Sequence record: MH752840.1
From: Escherichia phage vB_EcoM-Pr121LW
Direction: 5' to 3' (one strand)
DNA: 64,000 bases
A model generated the notes under the pieces. The model was not told the DNA's origin and did not search any database. It saw nothing but the letters and a program-made list of their open reading frames with translations. Positions 26,572 through 63,127 of the stretch are shown one piece after another. The first letter of the stretch is position 1; the number at the start of each line of letters is the position of its first letter. The translations under genes were made by a program, and so were the position numbers.

Positions 26572-26601
26572 TAAAAAGGGGCCAAATGGCCCCTTTCTTT
26601 T
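26572..26601. terminator. bidirectional terminator between convergent operons
   Basis: aaaaaggggccaaatggcccctttcttttt: GC hairpin flanked by A-run and T-run. Confidence 0.75.
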
Positions 26602-30815: not shown

Positions 30816-32297
30816 TTACTTAGCGTACTCGATTAATTCCACAGTTTTACCAAAGCTAGGGATATAATTTTTATTATACCCTTCGGTTAGAACCCATAAA
30901 GTATCGTACTTTTTCCACTTGTTGTCAACAGCCTTTTGTTCAAAGTTATGCTCAAAGTATAGGTCGGTCAGGACGATGACATCTTTTGCATTCGGTATGT
31001 TAGCATCCAGATACTCGAACACGCAAGCAGCTGTTGTGCCCCATGTTGAGTGGACCTCATAGTTGATCATCTCGTCTATGTTGCCGCGAGTGTATACTTT
31101 AACCTCTCCAACCTCAGTTGACCAACAGAACATTGTAACCTTAAACTCTTTATACAGATTGCACAATCCTGTGATTTCATTGAACATTTTCTTTAAAGTT
31201 CTTTGAGAGATCGAGCCAGAAACGTCCAAAGCCACCACAATATCTATAGTGTTTTCCGGATTACGACCAGGAACAATAACGTGTTGGTTCTTGTTTATAG
31301 CTCCGACTTTTCGCATTGTGCTGGTCAAAGACCCAGATCGGCGACCAGGTTTTCTGTAGGTCAGTTCGGCCTTTCTTTTAGACAACATACGCTGCTTGAT
31401 GATGTCTATATAATTGATTACAGGCTTACCTCTATTCTTGACAAACTCACGAACCGCCTCAGGGCAACGACCTCCGGAAGCTTGCATTGCTGCCTCAAGC
31501 ATGTCACCAGAGTCCTGCATGGCCTGATCTTTATCAGATTGGCTGATTACAGGTTGTGGCTGATCATACCCCATCGCCTTTCCAAGATCATCACTAGTGC
31601 CACCGTTACCACTCATGTGATCGTCGGTTTGTCGTTTATCTCCTTGAGAGTTCTCGCCTTTACCGCTCTTACTTTTACCGTTATTCTGATCTCTTTGCTT
31701 ATCAAGAACTGCATAAACGTTCTCAGCAATCCATCCATGAAACTTCATGTCGCAGTAGCAGCTGGCTAAGAAGCCAAAAGGCTTACCTTTCACGAACGTA
31801 GTGCTTTTCCCCTTCGGGAAGAAAACACAAGGAGGTTTGCTAAAGTCAACCACAAGGCCTGTGTTGATAACGTGATCACAAGCAATATTGAACAGTTCCG
31901 GCTCAAAGCTTTTACCACGGACCAGGTGATCACAGATAATATGCCCCACCTCATGTGACAGAAGGAAGGCCACCTCTTTCACAGATTTTGGGGAATAGAA
32001 AACTTCAGCCATCTCAAACTGCTCGTCAGTTAGAGAAGCCTTAAGAATAGCCTTGCGTTCATCAGCCAATCCCATAATGAACTCAGGACTGTAATAGATG
32101 CGTTTATGGTCGGTTGCCATGGTGGAGCACCATGTGTGGTTTTCTACGAACTGCAACCCTGACAGTAGTGTGCCATAAAACGGCAGCTTTTCAAGGAGAT
32201 ACATACGTGCAGCCTGCAACATTCTCAGGGCATCATCTTTCTGTGAGGTAATGATTTCTGAACTTCTGCTATCCATTAAAACTCCAGAAGGGGCCAT
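30816..32297 (-). CDS. VWA-domain protein with N-terminal HExxH metallopeptidase-like motif (DUF2201-type)
   Basis: HEVGHIICDH zinc-binding motif in N-terminal half; IVVALDVSGSIS (DxSxS MIDAS) in C-terminal half. Confidence 0.65.
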   Translation of the reverse strand: MAPSGVLMDSRSSEIITSQKDDALRMLQAARMYLLEKLPFYGTLLSGLQFVENHTWCSTMATDHKRIYYSPEFIMGLADERKAILKASLTDEQFEMAEVFYSPKSVKEVAFLLSHEVGHIICDHLVRGKSFEPELFNIACDHVINTGLVVDFSKPPCVFFPKGKSTTFVKGKPFGFLASCYCDMKFHGWIAENVYAVLDKQRDQNNGKSKSGKGENSQGDKRQTDDHMSGNGGTSDDLGKAMGYDQPQPVISQSDKDQAMQDSGDMLEAAMQASGGRCPEAVREFVKNRGKPVINYIDIIKQRMLSKRKAELTYRKPGRRSGSLTSTMRKVGAINKNQHVIVPGRNPENTIDIVVALDVSGSISQRTLKKMFNEITGLCNLYKEFKVTMFCWSTEVGEVKVYTRGNIDEMINYEVHSTWGTTAACVFEYLDANIPNAKDVIVLTDLYFEHNFEQKAVDNKWKKYDTLWVLTEGYNKNYIPSFGKTVELIEYAK

Positions 32298-32309
32298 TGG
32301 CCCCTGTCA

Positions 32310-33353
32310 TTATTTAACGTGTTTGAAAATACCTGCCAACTCGGTCATTGTCATGCGGGTGGTCTTCATAAGATCTGTCATAGCTTTCTCCATAATTGGA
32401 GATACTACCATAAAGTTTCCTTTAGTGAAACCTTTATTCCAGTCGGTCACCAACAGTGGTTTAAGTCCAGCTCCGAGACGTTCACCAGTTAAAGCACAGC
32501 ATTTGCGAATATACGAACTCTTAAATTGGCTGAACGACAGATCAACTTTCATACCTGCATCGTAGAACGTTTGACAATAGAAAGTGTAAGCCTTAGCAAT
32601 CTCAACATCATCAGGCAGTGCAGGAACCTCTTCTGCAATCCCCTCTTCGACCTCCTGAGGCTCTTTTTCCTCTTCAGAGTTCTGTTCTTCAACTTCTTCT
32701 GTCACAGTCTCGTTCACGATGTCTGAAATGTGTTTGTTGGCTGCACGATCAGCCATGAAATTTTTAAAGTCCTGCATTGGTGACATATCTTCTTCCTCTT
32801 CGTCAAATAGTGCTAGTTTATCTTCTTCTGTCCCGTATTGCAAGATGAAATCTTCAAAAGTATAATCACCTTTCAATTTCTCCATACGCTCTTCGCTCAG
32901 GTGGAGCATCATCTGCTGGACAATTTTTCGATCAGTTTTGTCTTTAATCAGGATTGCAGTCTTTTTATCTACCAGACAGTCTTTCAGAGCATTGCACCTC
33001 AACCCTACCACACAACAATTGTCAATTGCGTAAGGACCTTCATCATCTATACGCTCCAAAGATGGGTAGAAAGGATTTCCCAGCCCGTTTTCATCTGTGT
33101 GCATGTCAAAAGGTATAAGGGTATAGTCGCATACTCCATCTCCTAAAAGTTTTTTACCAAATAGGAGGTATTCTTCCCATGACAGGTTGAACTCTATATC
33201 TCGTTTCCGTGCATTATTCTGTTTGCGTCTATATTTTTTAAGCAGGCGCTCTAACTCTTCTGGTGTATAATATTTTTCAAGATTCATGCGTTGTCTCTCG
33301 TGCTCTGTAAGTGAAGAAATCGTATCAATTGTTTCAATAGATGTCAACATCAA
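32310..33353 (-). CDS. hypothetical protein with acidic low-complexity segment; possible degenerate HNH-like region
   Basis: 347 aa; SLERIDDEGPYAIDNCCVVGLRCNALK loosely resembles an HNH core without the catalytic His; EEEEDMS / EEVEEQNSEEEKEPQEVEE acidic stretch. Confidence 0.4.
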   Translation of the reverse strand: MMLTSIETIDTISSLTEHERQRMNLEKYYTPEELERLLKKYRRKQNNARKRDIEFNLSWEEYLLFGKKLLGDGVCDYTLIPFDMHTDENGLGNPFYPSLERIDDEGPYAIDNCCVVGLRCNALKDCLVDKKTAILIKDKTDRKIVQQMMLHLSEERMEKLKGDYTFEDFILQYGTEEDKLALFDEEEEDMSPMQDFKNFMADRAANKHISDIVNETVTEEVEEQNSEEEKEPQEVEEGIAEEVPALPDDVEIAKAYTFYCQTFYDAGMKVDLSFSQFKSSYIRKCCALTGERLGAGLKPLLVTDWNKGFTKGNFMVVSPIMEKAMTDLMKTTRMTMTELAGIFKHVK

Positions 33354-33360
33354 AAACGTG

Positions 33361-33389
33361 TTGACTTTACTCTAAATCTCCGATATAGT
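33361..33389 (+). promoter_or_regulatory. sigma70-type promoter (TTGACT-17-TATAGT) in divergent intergenic region
   Basis: Hexamers with 17-nt spacer upstream of 33430 gene. Confidence 0.55.
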
Positions 33390-33429
33390 GCACCCATTCG
33401 AAAGAAAACTAACATAGGAGCACTTACTT

Positions 33430-34329
33430 ATGGCAAATCTTAACAGTTTTAGTACGCGGTGGAAACAGGACATAACAACCAATCTTTCAGCTGGGGACAT
33501 CCTTTCTGCAATTTACGAGGCTTTAGATGATAAAGCTACTTCAAAAGCGGTTTGTACCAACCCACTAATTCCTGTAGTGATGAAGGTTATTGAGCGTAGA
33601 TTGGTATCTGGGTCTGATAAGTGGACATATTTAGATAATGAAGGACACACCTATTCCAATGGGTATGTCGATATAAAAGTAGAATACGCGGTATCATACC
33701 GCCGGAGCGGTTCTGTAACTTTCAACTTCTCTGGAGGTTTTCGATCTCTGGCTACCTCACCTTTTGTTTCCTCAGAGGAGAAGTATGAGCTGCCATTTCT
33801 TTGGATGATGGCTAACGCGACAGGAAAAACCCCCGTTAGCATCCGAGTAAAATACAACTACAACGGATCTAGTAAGATCTATGCCGAAAGTGTCTCAGCA
33901 AGTTTTTATTTTGTGATGGGGGATGGAATCCTCAAACATATAAAGATGTGCGATATGCATGATGTTATAAATGAAGTGACTGATAAGAATGTTCTAGTGA
34001 AAGACCTCAACAATTTTTATACACCCGGAGACTATTACGTCAGCCGTCCACTGTGCATCTTTAATGCCGCACACCCTCTAGGTGAGTATTTGATCGCCAA
34101 TAGCGATATTGCCAATAACCGCTTCGAGGTAGCAAGAGTTCAGAATGAGGTATTGACATCTTGCAAGAGCGGTGATACGTTTACCGAAGAAGAGATGGGT
34201 GTTTTAGAAATGATGGGATATAAGTGTAGCCTTTGGGTAGATGAGGTGTTTAATGATTGCATCTATGGACAGGATATTTACCCATTAAAGAAGTATACTG
34301 ATACAAGTTTAATTTATGCGAGGGTTTGA
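33430..34329 (+). CDS. hypothetical protein
   Basis: 299-aa ORF, RBS taggag, first gene downstream of promoter 33361-33389. Confidence 0.5.
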   Translation: MANLNSFSTRWKQDITTNLSAGDILSAIYEALDDKATSKAVCTNPLIPVVMKVIERRLVSGSDKWTYLDNEGHTYSNGYVDIKVEYAVSYRRSGSVTFNFSGGFRSLATSPFVSSEEKYELPFLWMMANATGKTPVSIRVKYNYNGSSKIYAESVSASFYFVMGDGILKHIKMCDMHDVINEVTDKNVLVKDLNNFYTPGDYYVSRPLCIFNAAHPLGEYLIANSDIANNRFEVARVQNEVLTSCKSGDTFTEEEMGVLEMMGYKCSLWVDEVFNDCIYGQDIYPLKKYTDTSLIYARV

Positions 34330-34331
34330 CT

Positions 34332-34604
34332 ATGATGAAGGCATGTGGTAATGTATATTACGTCGGTGAACATGTTCAGGCAGACAGTGTGTGGAAATCT
34401 ATTAAGTCCACCACTGACGATGCCTTTCTGAGTGGACTATGTTTCCCCAATCCGGGAGACATCCTCCCTCATCCTGGAGATTTTGTTGTCAACAAGATGG
34501 ACGGTTATACCGTGTGCCTGATGGTTGAAAAAATCTTTTTAGACACTAGACACAATCACCGTCTTGTGTTAAAATTTCAAGAATGTAAAATGACAATTGC
34601 CTAA
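34332..34604 (+). CDS. hypothetical protein
   Basis: ATG 34332 with gaggg 8 nt upstream; track start 34326 is TTG. Confidence 0.4.
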   Translation: MMKACGNVYYVGEHVQADSVWKSIKSTTDDAFLSGLCFPNPGDILPHPGDFVVNKMDGYTVCLMVEKIFLDTRHNHRLVLKFQECKMTIA

Positions 34605-34617
34605 GGAGACCTTACCG

Positions 34618-34974
34618 ATGTCTAAAGTTACTTATCGTGCAGCTATTTACTGCAATGAACACCCAATCAATAATGATGGTCACTGCCTTTTCAAAGAAAA
34701 TCAGTTGGGATGTATTGTCCTCCCTGATGAAGGGGAAGGTTATCTGATTGCATTAACAGGGTTTGAGCCTGAAGCTTTGGAAGCCAATCTGGACTACCTG
34801 GTAGAAGAGGGTGCTGCAGACCTGGTTGCCAATGGCTTCCCCGTAAGCCTTGACGAAGTGGAGCGCTTCATGGGCAATTACCGTGTAGTGCGTGAGTTTA
34901 CTATCGAGGTGGAAACTCCAGAGTGGGGCAGCCATGAAACTAATGCCGAAGAAAAAGAAGAGGGGGTAGAATAA
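34618..34974 (+). CDS. hypothetical protein
   Basis: ATG 34618 with RBS aaggag; track start 34597 is TTG inside upstream gene. Confidence 0.4.
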   Translation: MSKVTYRAAIYCNEHPINNDGHCLFKENQLGCIVLPDEGEGYLIALTGFEPEALEANLDYLVEEGAADLVANGFPVSLDEVERFMGNYRVVREFTIEVETPEWGSHETNAEEKEEGVE

Positions 34975-35231
34975 TGAAAGTGCAGATCTTGACTAATGCC
35001 GAGAAGATGTTTATCGAAGATACACCTTTTGAAGCTGGTGAGCTACAGTTCGTTTATTTTGTTGACTTAGATAAGGTGTTCCCTGCACTGAATCTGGGTC
35101 TGGATGAAGTTCCTCATAAGGTTTTGTGCCAAGTTGTTCGTGCATTAGCGGCAGATGGAGAGTTCCACACCCTTCAAGATGTCCAGACCTACGGGTATCT
35201 TGAACTACAACGAGAAGAAGAGGTGGACTGA
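34974..35231 (+). CDS. hypothetical acidic protein
   Basis: 85-aa ORF, start overlaps upstream stop. Confidence 0.4.
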   Translation: MKVQILTNAEKMFIEDTPFEAGELQFVYFVDLDKVFPALNLGLDEVPHKVLCQVVRALAADGEFHTLQDVQTYGYLELQREEEVD

Positions 35232-35233
35232 TA

Positions 35234-35614
35234 ATGGCCCGGTGGAAGACAACAATTGACCTGCATGATCAGTGGTTAGGACGCATCACTGAAGACGGGA
35301 AACTAGTGGAGTGGGACAATAAGCATGTTAGCGAGTTGGCAAGCATTGTGGCTGGCAAGTTACGCTCCAAGTTCCCTGAACAACTGGATCCTGATAATTC
35401 AAAGTTCGATCCTGAGTTGGAGGATGTTGTATACTACTTCGATACCGTGGATGACTACGATGCGTGGTTTGCAGCACGGGAGCTTTACCCACAAGGCTCT
35501 GCTATGCGCCAGATGGAAGAAGATTATCCTCCGTGCGAGCAATTTAATAGCGCAATGACTTGCCTCTACGATTGGGCAGATAAGAACCTTGTCTGGATTC
35601 GGACTGCATTTTAG
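35234..35614 (+). CDS. hypothetical protein
   Basis: 126-aa ORF, RBS aggtgga. Confidence 0.45.
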   Translation: MARWKTTIDLHDQWLGRITEDGKLVEWDNKHVSELASIVAGKLRSKFPEQLDPDNSKFDPELEDVVYYFDTVDDYDAWFAARELYPQGSAMRQMEEDYPPCEQFNSAMTCLYDWADKNLVWIRTAF

Positions 35615-35658
35615 TGGGCAGGAATGGCGGCAAGGATGCTGCTTAAGGAGTAGTAGAG

Positions 35659-35928
35659 ATGTTATACCAGCAATATGAACTTCGTGCAGAAAAAGAGTTA
35701 AATTTTGACAAAGATATTCACAGATATTATTATGGGAAAGTTAGAGGGCAAGCAAGAAAGTGTACTCCAACACTCTTTTATGCCAGCAGACGACTAGCGC
35801 CAGAAGAGGCAACAGCAGAAAGGGTTGCGTACAACTGGAGAGTCACGTATGATATTGACAGATCCGATGTGATATCTGTTTTGGAAAACTTTGAAAACAC
35901 TTACACACAAGTAGAGGACTTTTACTAA
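35659..35928 (+). CDS. hypothetical protein
   Basis: 89-aa ORF, RBS aaggag. Confidence 0.4.
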   Translation: MLYQQYELRAEKELNFDKDIHRYYYGKVRGQARKCTPTLFYASRRLAPEEATAERVAYNWRVTYDIDRSDVISVLENFENTYTQVEDFY

Positions 35929-37112
35929 TGTCAAGAAACGTATTTGAAAGTGGTCAAATCACTGTCCGTGAGTTGCCAGCTATCATTCAGTTTGCCCAGC
36001 GTCATAACCGATCTGTCCTGATTTTAGGACCAATGGGCGTGGGAAAGAGCCAAGTGATGAAGCAGATCGCCGATAATATGTTCGGTGAGCGAGATGATAA
36101 CTTGGTTGACGTGCGACTGTCAGATAAAGATCCTGCCGACTTATCTGGGCTACCTATCCCTGTAGAAGCGGATGGAACTACACGTACAGTATTTGCAATT
36201 CCAGAATTTTGGCCTGCGGATCCTGACTGGAGCGGAATTATCTTTCTGGATGAGCTCACTCATGCAGATAACTACCTGCAAAAGGTTGCAATGCAAATTA
36301 TGCTCGACCACAAGTGCGGTACCTATGCATTCCCTAAGGGTTCTGTTTTTGTGGCTGCTGGTAACCGTTCTACAGATGGTGCGGTTCTTTCGGCGCTCGA
36401 AGCCCCTCTGGCTAACCGTTTTATCATTGTAGAAGTTACAAGCAATGCAGAGGTGTTTATTGAGGACTACGCATTCCTTAATGGGGTGCACTCCTCTGTA
36501 ATTGGATATCTGAAAAGAGTTCCATCAGCTATCGATAATTATGAGGCCATGGCTGAGATTAATTGTCCATCTTTTGCCACACCACGATCTTGGGTTGCTG
36601 CATCTGATATCTTGCACGATTTTGACAGCGGTATTATTTCTGACGCTATGGCCCGTGTTCTTCTGCAAGGTGCTATCGGTCACACTGCAGCGGTAGAGAT
36701 CTGGACTTACCACACCAAGAAACGCAACTTACCGGAAATCGGTCGGATTATGGCAGGAGGTTGCAAAGAATATGTAGGTCCTAAACAGCCAGACATCTTG
36801 TGGATTCTTGGATCTGAAGGCTGTATCGCTATTCGTAATATGATGGAAAATGCAAGTATCTCCGACGAAGATCTTGTTAGCTGTGTGGCAAACTTCCTCG
36901 ATTTCCTTTGGGAAAACTTCAAGGACGAGAACCGAGATTTTGTATTCTCGGTCTTTATGGCGATGATGAAACCTAATGCCTTAGGAAATGCCTTGCTTAT
37001 CGGTAAAGGTCGTGACAAGATTGTTGCTCAGCTGATCAAAGCATACCCAAACCTGATGAAGATTGTAAAAGAGTTTGGTGAAGAGTTTAGCGCCATTTTG
37101 GCTAAAGCTTAA
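35928..37112 (+). CDS. AAA+ ATPase, MoxR/AAA_5-like
   Basis: Walker A LILGPMGVGKSQV and Walker B IIFLDELTHAD; size and layout typical of MoxR-type ATPases. Confidence 0.65.
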   Translation: MSRNVFESGQITVRELPAIIQFAQRHNRSVLILGPMGVGKSQVMKQIADNMFGERDDNLVDVRLSDKDPADLSGLPIPVEADGTTRTVFAIPEFWPADPDWSGIIFLDELTHADNYLQKVAMQIMLDHKCGTYAFPKGSVFVAAGNRSTDGAVLSALEAPLANRFIIVEVTSNAEVFIEDYAFLNGVHSSVIGYLKRVPSAIDNYEAMAEINCPSFATPRSWVAASDILHDFDSGIISDAMARVLLQGAIGHTAAVEIWTYHTKKRNLPEIGRIMAGGCKEYVGPKQPDILWILGSEGCIAIRNMMENASISDEDLVSCVANFLDFLWENFKDENRDFVFSVFMAMMKPNALGNALLIGKGRDKIVAQLIKAYPNLMKIVKEFGEEFSAILAKA

Positions 37113-40040: not shown

Positions 40041-41246
40041 ATGATTTTCATCTACGAACATTTCAAAACTCGTAAAGAAGCACGCGACCGCCGTGCAGAA
40101 CTTGAGAAGAAGGGTTTCACATGTGCTATTGAGAAAGGTACTACAACATGGACACTGGCAGTAGGTGCCCCAGAGCTGTTTGATCCTGACCGAGACAGTG
40201 TCTGCTATACCCGTGAGGATTTTGAAACCCGCGAAGAGGCCCGTTTATTCCGCTACGGACTGGAAGACAACGGTAAGTACGCCATGATCTTAGATTCAGG
40301 AGAAGGTTCCGTTAAACGTTGGAGTGTGGTATACCCACTGTGCGTTGTTCACGGTGTGGGGTTCACTGGAGTAGCAATCAAGTCAGAAGAACCTTCAGTA
40401 GAAGTCAAAGATCCGGTGCTGGAGGTGGTAAGCAGTGTTTCTCAACAACAGACTCGAAGCATAGAGCCTTTAGTAGTTATTTGTGGAGAACTTCTCCAAA
40501 TCACCTGCAACGAAGGTATTTTTGAAATTCGCCGCAGTGAAAGTGAAGAAGTTTACCAGAAAGTCTTCGACCATATCTCTGTTCAGAAATATGACGAGGC
40601 AATTGGTGAAATCCTTGTCTGGTTGGAACGCAAGAATGAGTTCACTACACTTGCAGACAACCTGATTATGAAAGATGGTAAGCTCTATTACTACGGTGTA
40701 GAGATGCAATCTACCATTGCAAAGAAAATTGAGGAAGATTATGTAGATGGAACACTGGACGACCGATATGTTAAATTCCTTGTCCGTCTGCTACGCAACC
40801 CGTCTGCAAAATCTGTGAACATGCTCTACGATTTCATGCAGGCTAATGACATCCAGGTTGCAGAAGATGGTCGAATCATTTGCTATAAAGGGGTTCAGTT
40901 TAACGGAGGCAAGTGGGTGGATTGGCACAGCGGTAAAGTTCCACAATACCAGGGTGCTTTTGTATCCATGCCTCGTAACTTTGTAGAAGATGATCCGGAA
41001 GCTGCGTGTTCTTATGGCCTGCACTGCGCCAGCAAAGAGTATGCAGCTGGCTATGGCACCGTAATGATGGTTATGGTTGACCCTGCGGATGTGGTTAGTG
41101 TGCCATACCAACACAACAGTGCTAAGTGCCGTGCATGCCGCTACGAAATCGTAGCAGCACCGGAATCACGCAAAGATGGCGATCCGATTGAATACGTAGT
41201 TGACCGTGATGGTAACATCATCGACATTATCTACGAGGAGGCGTAA
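40041..41246 (+). CDS. rIIB: rIIB-like protein
   Basis: C-terminal half (RLLRNPSAKSVNMLYDFMQANDIQVAEDG..., SYGLHCASKEY, VDPADVVSVPYQHNSAKCRACRYEIV) parallels T4 rIIB as recalled from memory. Confidence 0.5.
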   Translation: MIFIYEHFKTRKEARDRRAELEKKGFTCAIEKGTTTWTLAVGAPELFDPDRDSVCYTREDFETREEARLFRYGLEDNGKYAMILDSGEGSVKRWSVVYPLCVVHGVGFTGVAIKSEEPSVEVKDPVLEVVSSVSQQQTRSIEPLVVICGELLQITCNEGIFEIRRSESEEVYQKVFDHISVQKYDEAIGEILVWLERKNEFTTLADNLIMKDGKLYYYGVEMQSTIAKKIEEDYVDGTLDDRYVKFLVRLLRNPSAKSVNMLYDFMQANDIQVAEDGRIICYKGVQFNGGKWVDWHSGKVPQYQGAFVSMPRNFVEDDPEAACSYGLHCASKEYAAGYGTVMMVMVDPADVVSVPYQHNSAKCRACRYEIVAAPESRKDGDPIEYVVDRDGNIIDIIYEEA

Positions 41247-42616
41247 TGGAAAAAGGGCAGTATGACGTAGGCACAGATGCTGCCCTCATTGCAATCATGA
41301 GCGGTGAGAATGTCTTCGTTTCAGGACCCGCAGGTTGTGGGAAGACGTATCTCATCAACATGATCCAGTCCATGTATGGAGACTCTTGCATAACGGTTGC
41401 CCCGACAGGGGTAGCCGCATTAAACGTTAATGGAGCAACAGCACACCGAACATTCGATCTTGCAGCAGGTGTGAGCATGGAGTCGGACTGGACTGCAATA
41501 AGGGCAAAAACAGCAAAGCCTTTGAAAAGCAAGGCATTTACCATCCTAATTATCGATGAAATCTCTATGATCCGTGCTGATAAGTTTATAGAGATGGATA
41601 GGAAACTCCGCTTCCTTCGAAAAAATGACAAACCTTTCGGAGGCATACAGGTCATATTGTTTGGCGATTTTTACCAAGCACCTCCTGTTGTCTCTTCTAT
41701 GGAGAAGGAAGCCTACTTCAACTTCTACCATACGGACCTGTGTTGCTATACCGAATCTTGGAAAGAGCTTGACCTCCACAACATAGCCCTAGTAGATCAG
41801 TTCCGACAGGAGTCTATTCGATTTGCCACAATGCTCAACTGTGTTCGTGAGGGTCGTCGCATAAAAGAGGTTGTAGCAGAACTTAATGCTCGTTGTTACA
41901 AAGGCGGTGTACCAACAGACGCTCTCACAATTTGCGCCACCAACAAACAAGCGGAGGAAGTGAACAGAAGGTTCTATGATGCCATCAACGCCCCAGAAAA
42001 GGTATACACTGGTGAAATGAAGGGTAAGTTTCCCTCCACCCTGCCAGTTGAGCAGGAGATGAAGTTGAAAATTGGCATGAAAGTTATGATAACCGCCAAC
42101 GATGTTGACCCGACGCACAAAGTACCTTATTATGTTAACGGAACACGTGCCACAATTGTTAAATTTAAGAACAAGGCGGTGGTGGTAGAGCTTGAAGATG
42201 GAACACAGGTTGACATAGAACAGAGGTTGTGGGAGAATAACGAGTATAAGCCATCTCAAAGATACAACATTGCAGAAAGGAAGATGGAGAAGTTTATAGA
42301 GAGGGTAGTGATTGGATCATACAAGCAACTTCCTCTGAAATCTGGGTATGCCGTAACATCTCATAAAAGTCAAGGACTTACGCTAGATTGTTACAACCTG
42401 GACCTTGGAAAGAACGGAGCTTTCTCTCCTGGGATGACGTATGTTGCTTTGAGTCGAGTTAAGACAATACAAGGGATAAACTTGTTGCGTCCACTAAGAG
42501 AAGTTGATATTATTGTTGACCCGCGAGTCGTAGAGTTTTACAATACAACATTCCCTGACTTAGACAAAATTGTCAGGAAAGATTTTGAAACCAGAGCAGA
42601 AGAGGGGGACGTATGA
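41246..42616 (+). CDS. SF1B DNA helicase (PIF1/Dda/RecD-like)
   Basis: Walker A VSGPAGCGKTYL, Walker B ILIIDEISM, C-terminal SH3-like region; 456 aa. Confidence 0.7.
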   Translation: MEKGQYDVGTDAALIAIMSGENVFVSGPAGCGKTYLINMIQSMYGDSCITVAPTGVAALNVNGATAHRTFDLAAGVSMESDWTAIRAKTAKPLKSKAFTILIIDEISMIRADKFIEMDRKLRFLRKNDKPFGGIQVILFGDFYQAPPVVSSMEKEAYFNFYHTDLCCYTESWKELDLHNIALVDQFRQESIRFATMLNCVREGRRIKEVVAELNARCYKGGVPTDALTICATNKQAEEVNRRFYDAINAPEKVYTGEMKGKFPSTLPVEQEMKLKIGMKVMITANDVDPTHKVPYYVNGTRATIVKFKNKAVVVELEDGTQVDIEQRLWENNEYKPSQRYNIAERKMEKFIERVVIGSYKQLPLKSGYAVTSHKSQGLTLDCYNLDLGKNGAFSPGMTYVALSRVKTIQGINLLRPLREVDIIVDPRVVEFYNTTFPDLDKIVRKDFETRAEEGDV

Positions 42617-63103: not shown

Positions 63104-63127
63104 GGGGGGCAAGACGTTTGCCCCCCC
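63104..63127 (+). promoter_or_regulatory. 5-prime UTR stem-loop
   Basis: ggggggcaagacgtttgccccccc GC-rich hairpin just after the -10. Confidence 0.5.

Follow-up and report, generated by a model that had tools for sequence, protein, structure and literature searches.

A putative ATPase gene and a VWA gene on opposite strands

The window considered here is a stretch of 64,000 nucleotides (nt) from the genome of Escherichia phage vB_EcoM-Pr121LW (record MH752840.1), a Vequintavirus (an rV5-like E. coli myovirus) that is 97-98% identical to GenBank records annotating both of the genes that concern us. One encodes an AAA+ ATPase of the MoxR class, and the other a two-domain protein that joins a zincin-like DUF2201 region to a VWA domain. 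The original prediction, made from the letters alone, had placed these open reading frames (ORFs) at 35928-37112 on the plus strand and at 30816-32297 on the minus strand (493 amino acids, aa), and both are present exactly as claimed. With the more likely start of the VWA gene they read as follows:

35928-37112, plus strand: gene for a predicted MoxR-class (NorQ/CbbQ-like) AAA+ ATPase, 394 aa, whose start overlaps the stop of a preceding 89-aa ORF (TAATG)
30816-32276, minus strand: VWA/zincin-like gene, 486 aa from its likely start, recognised by Pfam, homologues and a structural model; the ORF from the first ATG, at 32297, has 493 aa

With the segment 30000-38000 as a megablast query, 121 phage records matched, 113 of them with at least 80% query coverage and 90-98% identity, and the closest named relatives were SophiaRose (98.0%), AlexBoehm/Bas56 (97.7%) and rV5 (96.9%). 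Those Vequintavirus records label the plus-strand ORF 'MoxR ATPase' or 'ATPase', and its product is 100% identical to its counterpart in phage phita32. The minus-strand ORF appears in related records as a 'putative metallopeptidase' or a 'VWA-like domain containing protein' and, wrongly, as an 'HNH endonuclease' or an 'anti-sigma factor'. Both genes and their family labels are already public in GenBank and are not a new observation, and the module is known in kind, being a long-annotated, widespread and uncharacterised pair of the N4 gp24/gp25 type. The additions of this analysis are explicit evidence that the two genes are a cognate pair, apparently split by an inversion, the pointing out of a depletion of the VWA gene in published transposon data, and the removal of an idea about a hairpin at its start codon.

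A divergent MoxR-class ATPase

The characteristic motifs of the ATPase were located in an alignment of 36 sequences, and its beta-hairpin in a predicted model:

36027-36050, plus strand: Walker A, GPMGVGKS
about 36150-36197, plus strand: helix-2-insert beta-hairpin (predicted)
36243-36254, plus strand: Walker B, FLDE
36354-36368, plus strand: sensor 1, AAGNR
36408-36422, plus strand: arginine-finger motif, LANRF
36576-36593, plus strand: sensor 2, ATPRSW

The key residues of Walker A (GxxGxGKS), Walker B (DE), sensor 1 (AGNR), LANRF and ATPR are invariant in all 36 sequences. A protein search lists 5,693 relatives of the ATPase, which from about 35% identity down carry AAA_3 (the MoxR family model) and AAA_5; among the aligned homologues, 15 of 36 (30-33% identity) match AAA_3/AAA_5, with E values down to 2e-9. 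The AlphaFold2 model (predicted local distance difference test score, pLDDT, 83.7) predicts helix-2-insert strands at residues 75-81 and 84-90 and a short pre-sensor-1 hairpin at about 128-133. When this model was compared with the PDB by Foldseek, the top matches were NorQ structures, both the hexamer and its complexes with NorD (E 4e-8 to 4e-7, target template modelling score 0.60-0.67), with CbbQ2, the MoxR protein CHU_0153 and cso-CbbQ among the further top matches, and the ATPase family profile matches the AAA domains of Midasin at 1.4e-10. A single-sequence search of the PDB gave just P-loop matches to Clp proteins, and neither NCBIfam nor PADLOC gave a meaningful match. Because the motifs, the 31-35%-identical homologues and the fold agree, we accept the protein, despite missed Pfam cut-offs, as a divergent MoxR-class ATPase, predicted to be NorQ/CbbQ-like and to carry an extra helical C-terminal region.

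A partner with zincin-like and VWA domains

Profile searches bore out the family assignments of the original prediction. For the partner, PF13203 (DUF2201_N, putative metallopeptidase) scored 99.4 bits against a cut-off of 23.2 (E 3.4e-28) and PF09967 (DUF2201 VWA-like) 43.7 bits, likewise above its cut-off (E 3.6e-11); the ATPase stayed sub-threshold and is backed by its homologues, fold and motifs. PF13203 and PF09967 occur together in 54 of 54 partner homologues among the matches listed, and the two-domain DUF2201 family has 33,249 representatives at 50% identity (E <= 1e-3) in phages and bacteria. [quoted passage not shown]

31941-31955, minus strand: HEVGH (HExxH), residues 115-119 in 493-aa numbering, with H, E and H invariant
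31593-31673, minus strand: low-complexity linker rich in Gly, Ser, Asp and Lys, residues 202-228 in 486-aa numbering, predicted to be disordered (pLDDT < 50, gaps and variability in the alignment)
31332-31343, minus strand: RRSG, part of a nearly invariant R-P-x-R-R just upstream of the VWA core
31212-31226, minus strand: MIDAS motif DVSGS, residues 358-362 in 493-aa numbering
31032-31040, minus strand: MIDAS Thr of GTT
30960-30968, minus strand: MIDAS Asp of TDL

The full MIDAS set, D351, S353, (G354), S355, T414 and D438 in 486-aa numbering, is invariant in the 34 sequences, as are a His five residues past the last His of the HExxH motif and the Asp of an ACDH motif; H117 and D134 (486-aa numbering) are the invariant candidates for a third zinc ligand. 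In the partner model (pLDDT 84.3) a helical domain at the N-terminus is followed by a disordered linker and a compact VWA domain, and the Rossmann-like VWA fold matches BatB, integrin I domains and the VWA domain of NorD; a single-sequence search of the PDB with the partner returned nothing. For the N-terminal domain, weak sequence hints point to M48 and minigluzincin peptidases, and we predict that it may act as a peptidase. The R-P-x-R-R region could be a candidate ATPase contact or 'finger'. The Vequintavirinae partners also carry insertions, one of about 45 residues that follows the first beta-strands of the peptidase-like domain and one of about 17 in front of the VWA core.

Homologues of this DUF2201 VWA/zincin protein are widely mislabelled as 'HNH endonuclease', 'anti-sigma factor', 'DNA repair ATPase', 'tail protein' or 'metallo-phosphohydrolase' (phrog_1314, NC_011041, NC_017974). 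The label 'HNH endonuclease', found in phrog_1314 and many RefSeq records, is an annotation error: DUF2201_N, linker and VWA domain fill the whole length of the protein, and a Pfam scan found no HNH family, and with it no HNH/His-Me finger domain, at E <= 0.1. The labels 'anti-sigma factor' and 'DNA repair ATPase' on some homologues were likewise considered and rejected after Pfam and homologue searches. In the rV5 record (DQ832317, 3823-5284) the gene is split into the overlapping ORF12 (1326 nt) and ORF13 (246 nt) instead of one coding sequence of 1461 nt, which points to a frameshift, or to an error in sequencing, close to the 3' end in that record.

The two genes are neighbours in other lineages

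The partner does not adjoin the ATPase in this genome, but it does so in homologous loci of at least 11 other lineages. Both homologues lie within about 7 kb of each other in 15 of 16 other loci examined, and are adjacent in most. In cyanophage S-TIM5 (locus L022, 3024-5659) the ATPase and DUF2201 genes overlap by 4 bp; in Bacillus jumbo phage BpSp, gp083 and gp084 are the adjacent pair; and in Pseudaeromonas phage KLEP7 one small ORF separates the two, within about 1 kb. The ATPase adjoins the DUF2201 gene in uncultured phages of about 150 kb, and an ATPase homologue of 27-30% identity stands beside the DUF2201 gene in two N4-like phages (L004 and L005). On three further metagenomic contigs the pair is adjacent, about 1 kb apart with small intervening ORFs, or in reverse order. 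The arrangement extends to bacteria: in Sulfurivermis fontis an AAA_5 gene (ATPase identity 31%, E 4e-37) lies directly upstream of a DUF2201 gene. Adjacency is typical of the MoxR family, but not obligatory. In N4 itself, gp24 (AAA) and gp25 (vWFA) are the named equivalents, and vWFA is a core gene of N4-like phages, the function of the pair being uncharacterised (PMC2784036, PMC10783043). In S-TIM5 a gene for the small heat-shock protein Hsp20 stands directly upstream of the pair, which fits a protein-remodelling role.

The distribution of the two proteins was compared by tblastn against 50,697 phage records. Counts by genus were nearly equal (Escherichia 211/213, Pectobacterium 26/26, Cronobacter 17/17), and the records that match with an identity of at least 95% number 118 for one protein and 117 for the other; in total the ATPase was found in 812 phage records vs 670 for the VWA protein. 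Identity also tracks between the two proteins across lineages, with VWA/ATPase values of 61/73, 45/50, 37/37 and 34/35%. Gene neighbourhood elsewhere strongly supports that the divergently placed Vequintavirus genes are a cognate pair, and the partnership across strands that the original prediction had proposed is strongly backed by neighbourhood and weakly by transposon data in which both genes are depleted on one host.

A pair probably split by an inversion

In this genome the two genes are 3.6 kb apart on opposite strands and belong to the two arms of a divergent region. The claim that they lie in divergent operons holds, with two arms, back-to-back promoters and a change of sign in GC skew, which occurs at the switch point (about 33.35-33.43 kb); across the window the skew is negative between about 26 and 34 kb and otherwise positive. 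The relevant elements are:

33319-33389, both strands: divergent promoter region with back-to-back sigma70-like promoters
33347-33319, minus strand: sigma70-like promoter, TTGACA-17-TACGAT with TG, in a region compared with promoter P11 of the rV5 record
33361-33389, plus strand: sigma70-like promoter, TTGACT-17-TATAGT
35705-35733, plus strand: sigma70-like promoter, TTGACA-17-TATTAT (11/12 matches), inside the 89-aa ORF and about 195 nt before the ATPase start
32310-33287, minus strand: Srd-like 'anti-sigma factor' gene, the first gene of the leftward arm, directly upstream of the VWA gene

The promoter at 35705-35733 corresponds in position to P4 annotated in the rV5 record.

Comparison with relatives indicates how this layout may have arisen. 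Within the subfamily Vequintavirinae, Certrevirus CR3 (gp112 then gp113) and phage W70 show one arrangement: the two genes are adjacent and co-directional, with gaps of about 67-110 nt. They are divergent, with the Srd-like gene preceding the VWA gene, in Seunavirus SSE121, Ro1, KNP2, the 61%-identical relatives and all Vequintavirus genomes. In SSE121 the block running from a phosphohydrolase gene to the ATPase gene lies next to the switch point in an orientation opposite to that in CR3. Because this block is reversed relative to CR3, we infer that the split is derived and goes back to one inversion event, with a breakpoint falling between the ATPase and VWA genes, common to Vequintavirus, Seunavirus and their relatives. 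The ancestral layout would have been the ATPase gene followed directly by the VWA gene on one strand; a breakpoint in the short intergenic spacer would then have moved the ATPase block to the other arm of the divergent early-gene region, where each gene would have come to lie downstream of host-type sigma70-like promoters and both would have stayed intact. Catalytic and MIDAS residues are indeed intact for both genes in every split lineage examined.

Published transposon data and the defence system DS-28

A recent preprint describes HIDEN-SEQ, a transposon sequencing study of Vequintavirus Bas54 (bioRxiv 10.1101/2025.11.20.689424), a phage in which gene order and gene lengths (1185 and 1461 nt) are as in this genome. 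The gene bas54_0063, annotated 'MoxR ATPase', is almost certainly the ortholog of ORF 35928-37112, as judged from synteny, gene length and genus-wide near-identity, the Bas54 sequence not itself having been aligned. On E. coli K-12 both genes are non-essential, with insertions at 60 of 64 TA sites in the ATPase gene and 81 of 86 in the metallopeptidase gene. Deletion of bas54_0063, or of the unrelated small gene bas54_0140, leads to specific sensitivity to the cloned system DS-28 from E. coli CFE311 (all from bioRxiv 10.1101/2025.11.20.689424). DS-28 is a two-gene system of the DefensePredictor study, described there as 'hypothetical protein, HEPN family nuclease'.

In the resampling comparison of K-12 with CFE311, the ATPase gene has a log2 fold change of -7.23 (q = 0) and bas54_0140 one of -5.48; the DNA helicase gene bas54_0068 is also strongly depleted on CFE311 (-6.32). 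The metallopeptidase/VWA gene, bas54_0055, is depleted as well, with a log2 fold change of -2.20 (p = 0.0009, q = 0.009), and its immediate neighbours are unchanged (supplementary table, bioRxiv 10.1101/2025.11.20.689424). The authors of the preprint drew no link between the two genes, and we read this depletion as a first, modest genetic hint that the partner takes part in the same process as the ATPase. Taken together, the published transposon data suggest that the module helps the phage to beat a bacterial defence system. The statement that the substrate of such phage pairs is unknown is still true, and it is now incomplete, the ATPase having a reported anti-DS-28 phenotype.

Interpretation of the split pair

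Homology, motifs, predicted folds, gene neighbourhood, the rearrangement and the published transposon and knockout phenotypes are the basis on which we read the two ORFs as the separated halves of a conserved ATPase/VWA-zincin module, split by an inversion, dispensable on K-12 and acting in counter-defence against DS-28. We consider this reading probable, with appreciable room for doubt. It implies that the ATPase and the VWA protein would interact physically in this phage and that the VWA protein would have a role against DS-28, with a target that may be a protein of the defence system or of the phage. Against DS-28 the ATPase would be required, and the VWA gene would contribute on the same host.

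Several points weigh against this reading, in addition to the unaligned Bas54 sequence. The preprint is not peer reviewed, and in its Extended Data Table 8 the Data S6 (labelled CFE303) and Data S7 (CFE311) are one TRANSIT run, BW vs 311. A literature search found no characterised member of a DUF2201-type pair. Every Pfam match of the ATPase itself lies below the gathering cut-off (AAA_5 16.7 bits vs 22, bpMoxR 15.4 vs 27). For the N-terminal domain of the partner, fold comparison recovered no solved peptidase, VWA matches dominating. The VWA gene is about 30-fold less depleted on CFE311 than the ATPase gene; the second DS-28 factor in the preprint is bas54_0140, not the VWA gene, and the ATPase may act largely alone. 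The two genes are separate transcription units, with a terminator-like hairpin just upstream of the VWA gene, and on one contig, L012 (IMGVR_UViG_3300045988_163358), there is no ATPase within 10 kb of the VWA gene.

Many of these same points favour the alternative that the two genes became uncoupled after the split, so that the ATPase works against DS-28 alone or with another partner, for example the product of bas54_0140, and the VWA-zincin protein has a minor, separate role. The effects in the transposon data are far apart, the validated DS-28 factors are the ATPase and bas54_0140, each of the two genes has promoters of its own, and both the larger number of phage records with the ATPase and the contig L012 are in keeping with such a loosening. 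We nevertheless regard uncoupling as doubtful, though it retains some plausibility. Every split lineage examined retains both genes with their catalytic and MIDAS residues complete; the divergence of the two proteins tracks across lineages, and elsewhere the genes are as a rule adjacent; on CFE311 the depletion of the VWA gene is still significant; and the NorQD system needs its VWA partner for target remodelling (PMC13036017).

If the pair does act jointly, its mechanism may resemble that of NorQ-NorD, CbbQ-CbbO, RavA-ViaA and Midasin. By this analogy a hexamer of the ATPase would grip the VWA domain and, powered by ATP, twist it or pull on it; a target protein would be bound at the MIDAS site through an acidic residue, and would be cleaved or clamped by the zincin-like domain. 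A more specific version holds that the split pair is an ATP-driven VWA-zincin machine whose MIDAS recognises a component of DS-28, as a HEPN-nuclease abortive-infection system, or its phage trigger, and which then cleaves or dismantles it. We offer this version as a conjecture that is unlikely to be right. Were the pair to act jointly against DS-28, this would be the first function assigned to a module that is very common in phages, and Bas54 with K-12 carrying cloned DS-28 would provide a tractable system in which to test it; were MIDAS-guided cleavage of a DS-28 component or trigger also true, the N4 gp24/gp25-type module would turn out to be an AAA+-powered protease with a general role in counter-defence, and the first such machine.

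It is also conceivable that the pair is a housekeeping maturation chaperone, serving metal cofactor insertion or the assembly of an enzyme or the virion, and that sensitivity to DS-28 is an indirect consequence of its loss. The characterised relatives NorQD and CbbQO are maturation chaperones, and one viral MoxR-VWA pair, that of Acidianus two-tailed virus, an archaeal virus, reportedly has a role in tail development. In other phages the pair lies among genes for thymidylate synthase, dUTPase, dCMP deaminase, 5'-3' exonuclease, RNA polymerase and helicase, and both the core status of vWFA in N4-like phages and the Hsp20 gene of S-TIM5 would suit such a role. On K-12, however, insertions are tolerated at about 94% of TA sites, with no change of fitness class, so that no essential enzyme or virion part depends on the pair under standard conditions, and the phenotype of the ATPase knockout is specific to one cloned defence system. 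This makes the housekeeping explanation improbable.

Comparison with known systems

The counter-defence module that we favour has its closest counterpart in gp24/gp25 of N4 (Schitoviridae). Compared through the N4-like loci L004 and L005, the two systems share the same two families and a location among early/middle DNA-metabolism genes. They differ in that the N4-like genes are adjacent or nearly so and co-directional, in contrast to the 3.6 kb and the opposite strands found here, and in that lineage-specific insertions belong to the Vequintavirinae proteins. Cellular counterparts are found in bacterial COG0714/COG3864 pairs (MoxR-like and DUF2201), such as that of Sulfurivermis fontis, which have the same two-gene architecture but are only about 22-31% identical and, in the one bacterial locus read, have no defence or counter-defence context.

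In structure, the best matches for both proteins are NorQ-NorD and CbbQ-CbbO of the CGN subfamily. The ATPase shares the helix-2-insert hairpin, and NorD has an N-terminal domain, a flexible linker and a C-terminal MIDAS VWA domain in the same order as the phage partner. In NorQ-NorD the concave face of the hexamer seats the VWA domain, whose finger extends to the helix-2 inserts and whose C-terminus rests on a post-sensor-1 loop; in the 'finger-in-pore' mechanism described for NorQD, ATP binding rotates the VWA domain against the N-terminal domain and stretches the linker, the MIDAS being the proposed client holder (PMC13036017). The likeness has its limits. Sequence identity is just 16-20%, and the phage ATPase is extended at its C-terminus by a helical region of about 120 residues; NorD and CbbO are without an HExxH zincin-like N-terminal domain, and their clients, cNOR and Rubisco, are irrelevant to the phage.

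Two further comparisons concern conflict between phages and bacteria. In the account of the Bas54 anti-DS-28 factor, the preprint treats the ATPase alone, without a link to bas54_0055 and without a mechanism. The MoxR-vWA ternary conflict systems (Kaur et al., eLife 2020, PMC7159879) likewise use an ATP-driven switch or chaperone couple, with peptidase domains sometimes fused to vWA, but they serve host defence and have a third component (VMAP, iSTAND, a beta-propeller or FtsH).

Start codon of the VWA gene and the adjoining hairpin

The original prediction had also proposed that the start codon of the VWA gene lies in the loop of a GC hairpin that may regulate its translation. The elements concerned are:

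32289-32305, minus strand: GC hairpin AGGGGCC-AAT-GGCCCCT, a perfect 7 bp, in the intergenic stretch from the Srd-like gene's stop (32310) to the ribosome-binding site of the VWA gene
32282-32285, minus strand: Shine-Dalgarno sequence GGAG, 5 nt upstream of the ATG at 32276-32274

The hairpin is real and stable (the 53-nt RNA stretch that contains it folds at -18.9 kcal/mol, z = -3.1), and its loop does contain the A and T of the ATG that comes first in frame (32297-32295). That ATG, however, is not the likely start. The ATG at 32276 lies 21 nt downstream of it, and annotations of the BASEL phages begin there (486 aa). In a 95%-identical relative (L007) the loop has ATT in place of the ATG. 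The hairpin of the 61%-identical relatives L008-L011 is AAGGGGGC-TTTG-GCCCCCTT (loop TTTG or TTTT), with the stem altered on both sides and a loop without ATG, and is followed by GGAGG and a GTG start; closer relatives keep the ATG start and GGAG. Because GGAG precedes the ATG at 32276, the loop ATG is not conserved, and the BASEL start lies there, the VWA protein is most likely of 486 aa.

The hairpin itself belongs to a recurrent type. Perfect GC hairpins of 7 bp or more number 11 in the window vs 2.6 expected from shuffles (at 2132-2150, 26576-26595, 32289-32305, 63105-63125 and seven further places), and several, for example the one at 26576-26595, have a near-identical AGGGGCC/GGCCCCT stem; they look like a dispersed family of intergenic terminator-like elements. 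At the same position Seunavirus SSE121 has a canonical terminator, a 9-bp stem followed by the T-run TTTTTTATTT, directly before GGAGAG-ATG. Given this dispersed stem family and the SSE121 terminator, the hairpin at 32289-32305 is a conserved but generic intergenic stem-loop, terminator-like or of the mRNA-end kind, and not a start-codon device. That it hides the start codon and Shine-Dalgarno sequence and regulates translation is very hard to credit, for all that it is conserved in position and takes in the first in-frame ATG and an AGGGG stretch, with the start actually used lying downstream, the loop ATG missing in relatives that keep a downstream ATG or GTG with GGAG(G), and similar stems recurring through the window.

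Neighbouring genes and record annotation

Some of the surrounding ORFs and their labels call for comment. The Srd-like gene is listed as a TTG-start ORF (32310-33353, minus strand) that overruns its own sigma70-like promoter at 33347-33319; its start is likely the ATG at 33287 (M23 of the listed ORF), as annotated in BASEL phages. The 89-aa ORF at 35659-35928 (plus strand), which holds the ATPase promoter, is phrog_13164 and is labelled 'ATPase', though it is far too small for one; the 61%-identical relatives have kept it together with the ATPase, and no copy was found in SSE121, CR3 or W70. The 299-aa ORF at 33430-34329 (plus strand) is called 'putative alpha 1-3 fucosyltransferase' in relatives. 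It has no Pfam match at E <= 0.1, its sole strong match is a function-unknown PHROG, and a marginal match (E 0.0095) is to a thymidylate-kinase PHROG; the basis of the fucosyltransferase label is an old similarity, and a weak one. Scans of the window against Rfam and for tRNAs gave no match.

Among the matching records, 16 unannotated MG0656xx entries are named 'Campylobacter phage' (host C. jejuni) and are 97% identical to E. coli rV5-like phages over the 8-kb region, and their host labels look doubtful. Finally, the ORF at 41246-42616 (plus strand) has the position of the 'DNA helicase' gene of phage AlexBoehm, directly after rIIB, where Bas54 has the likewise labelled bas54_0068, and helicase genes adjoin the ATPase/VWA pair in Pseudomonas N4-like phages and on contig L043.

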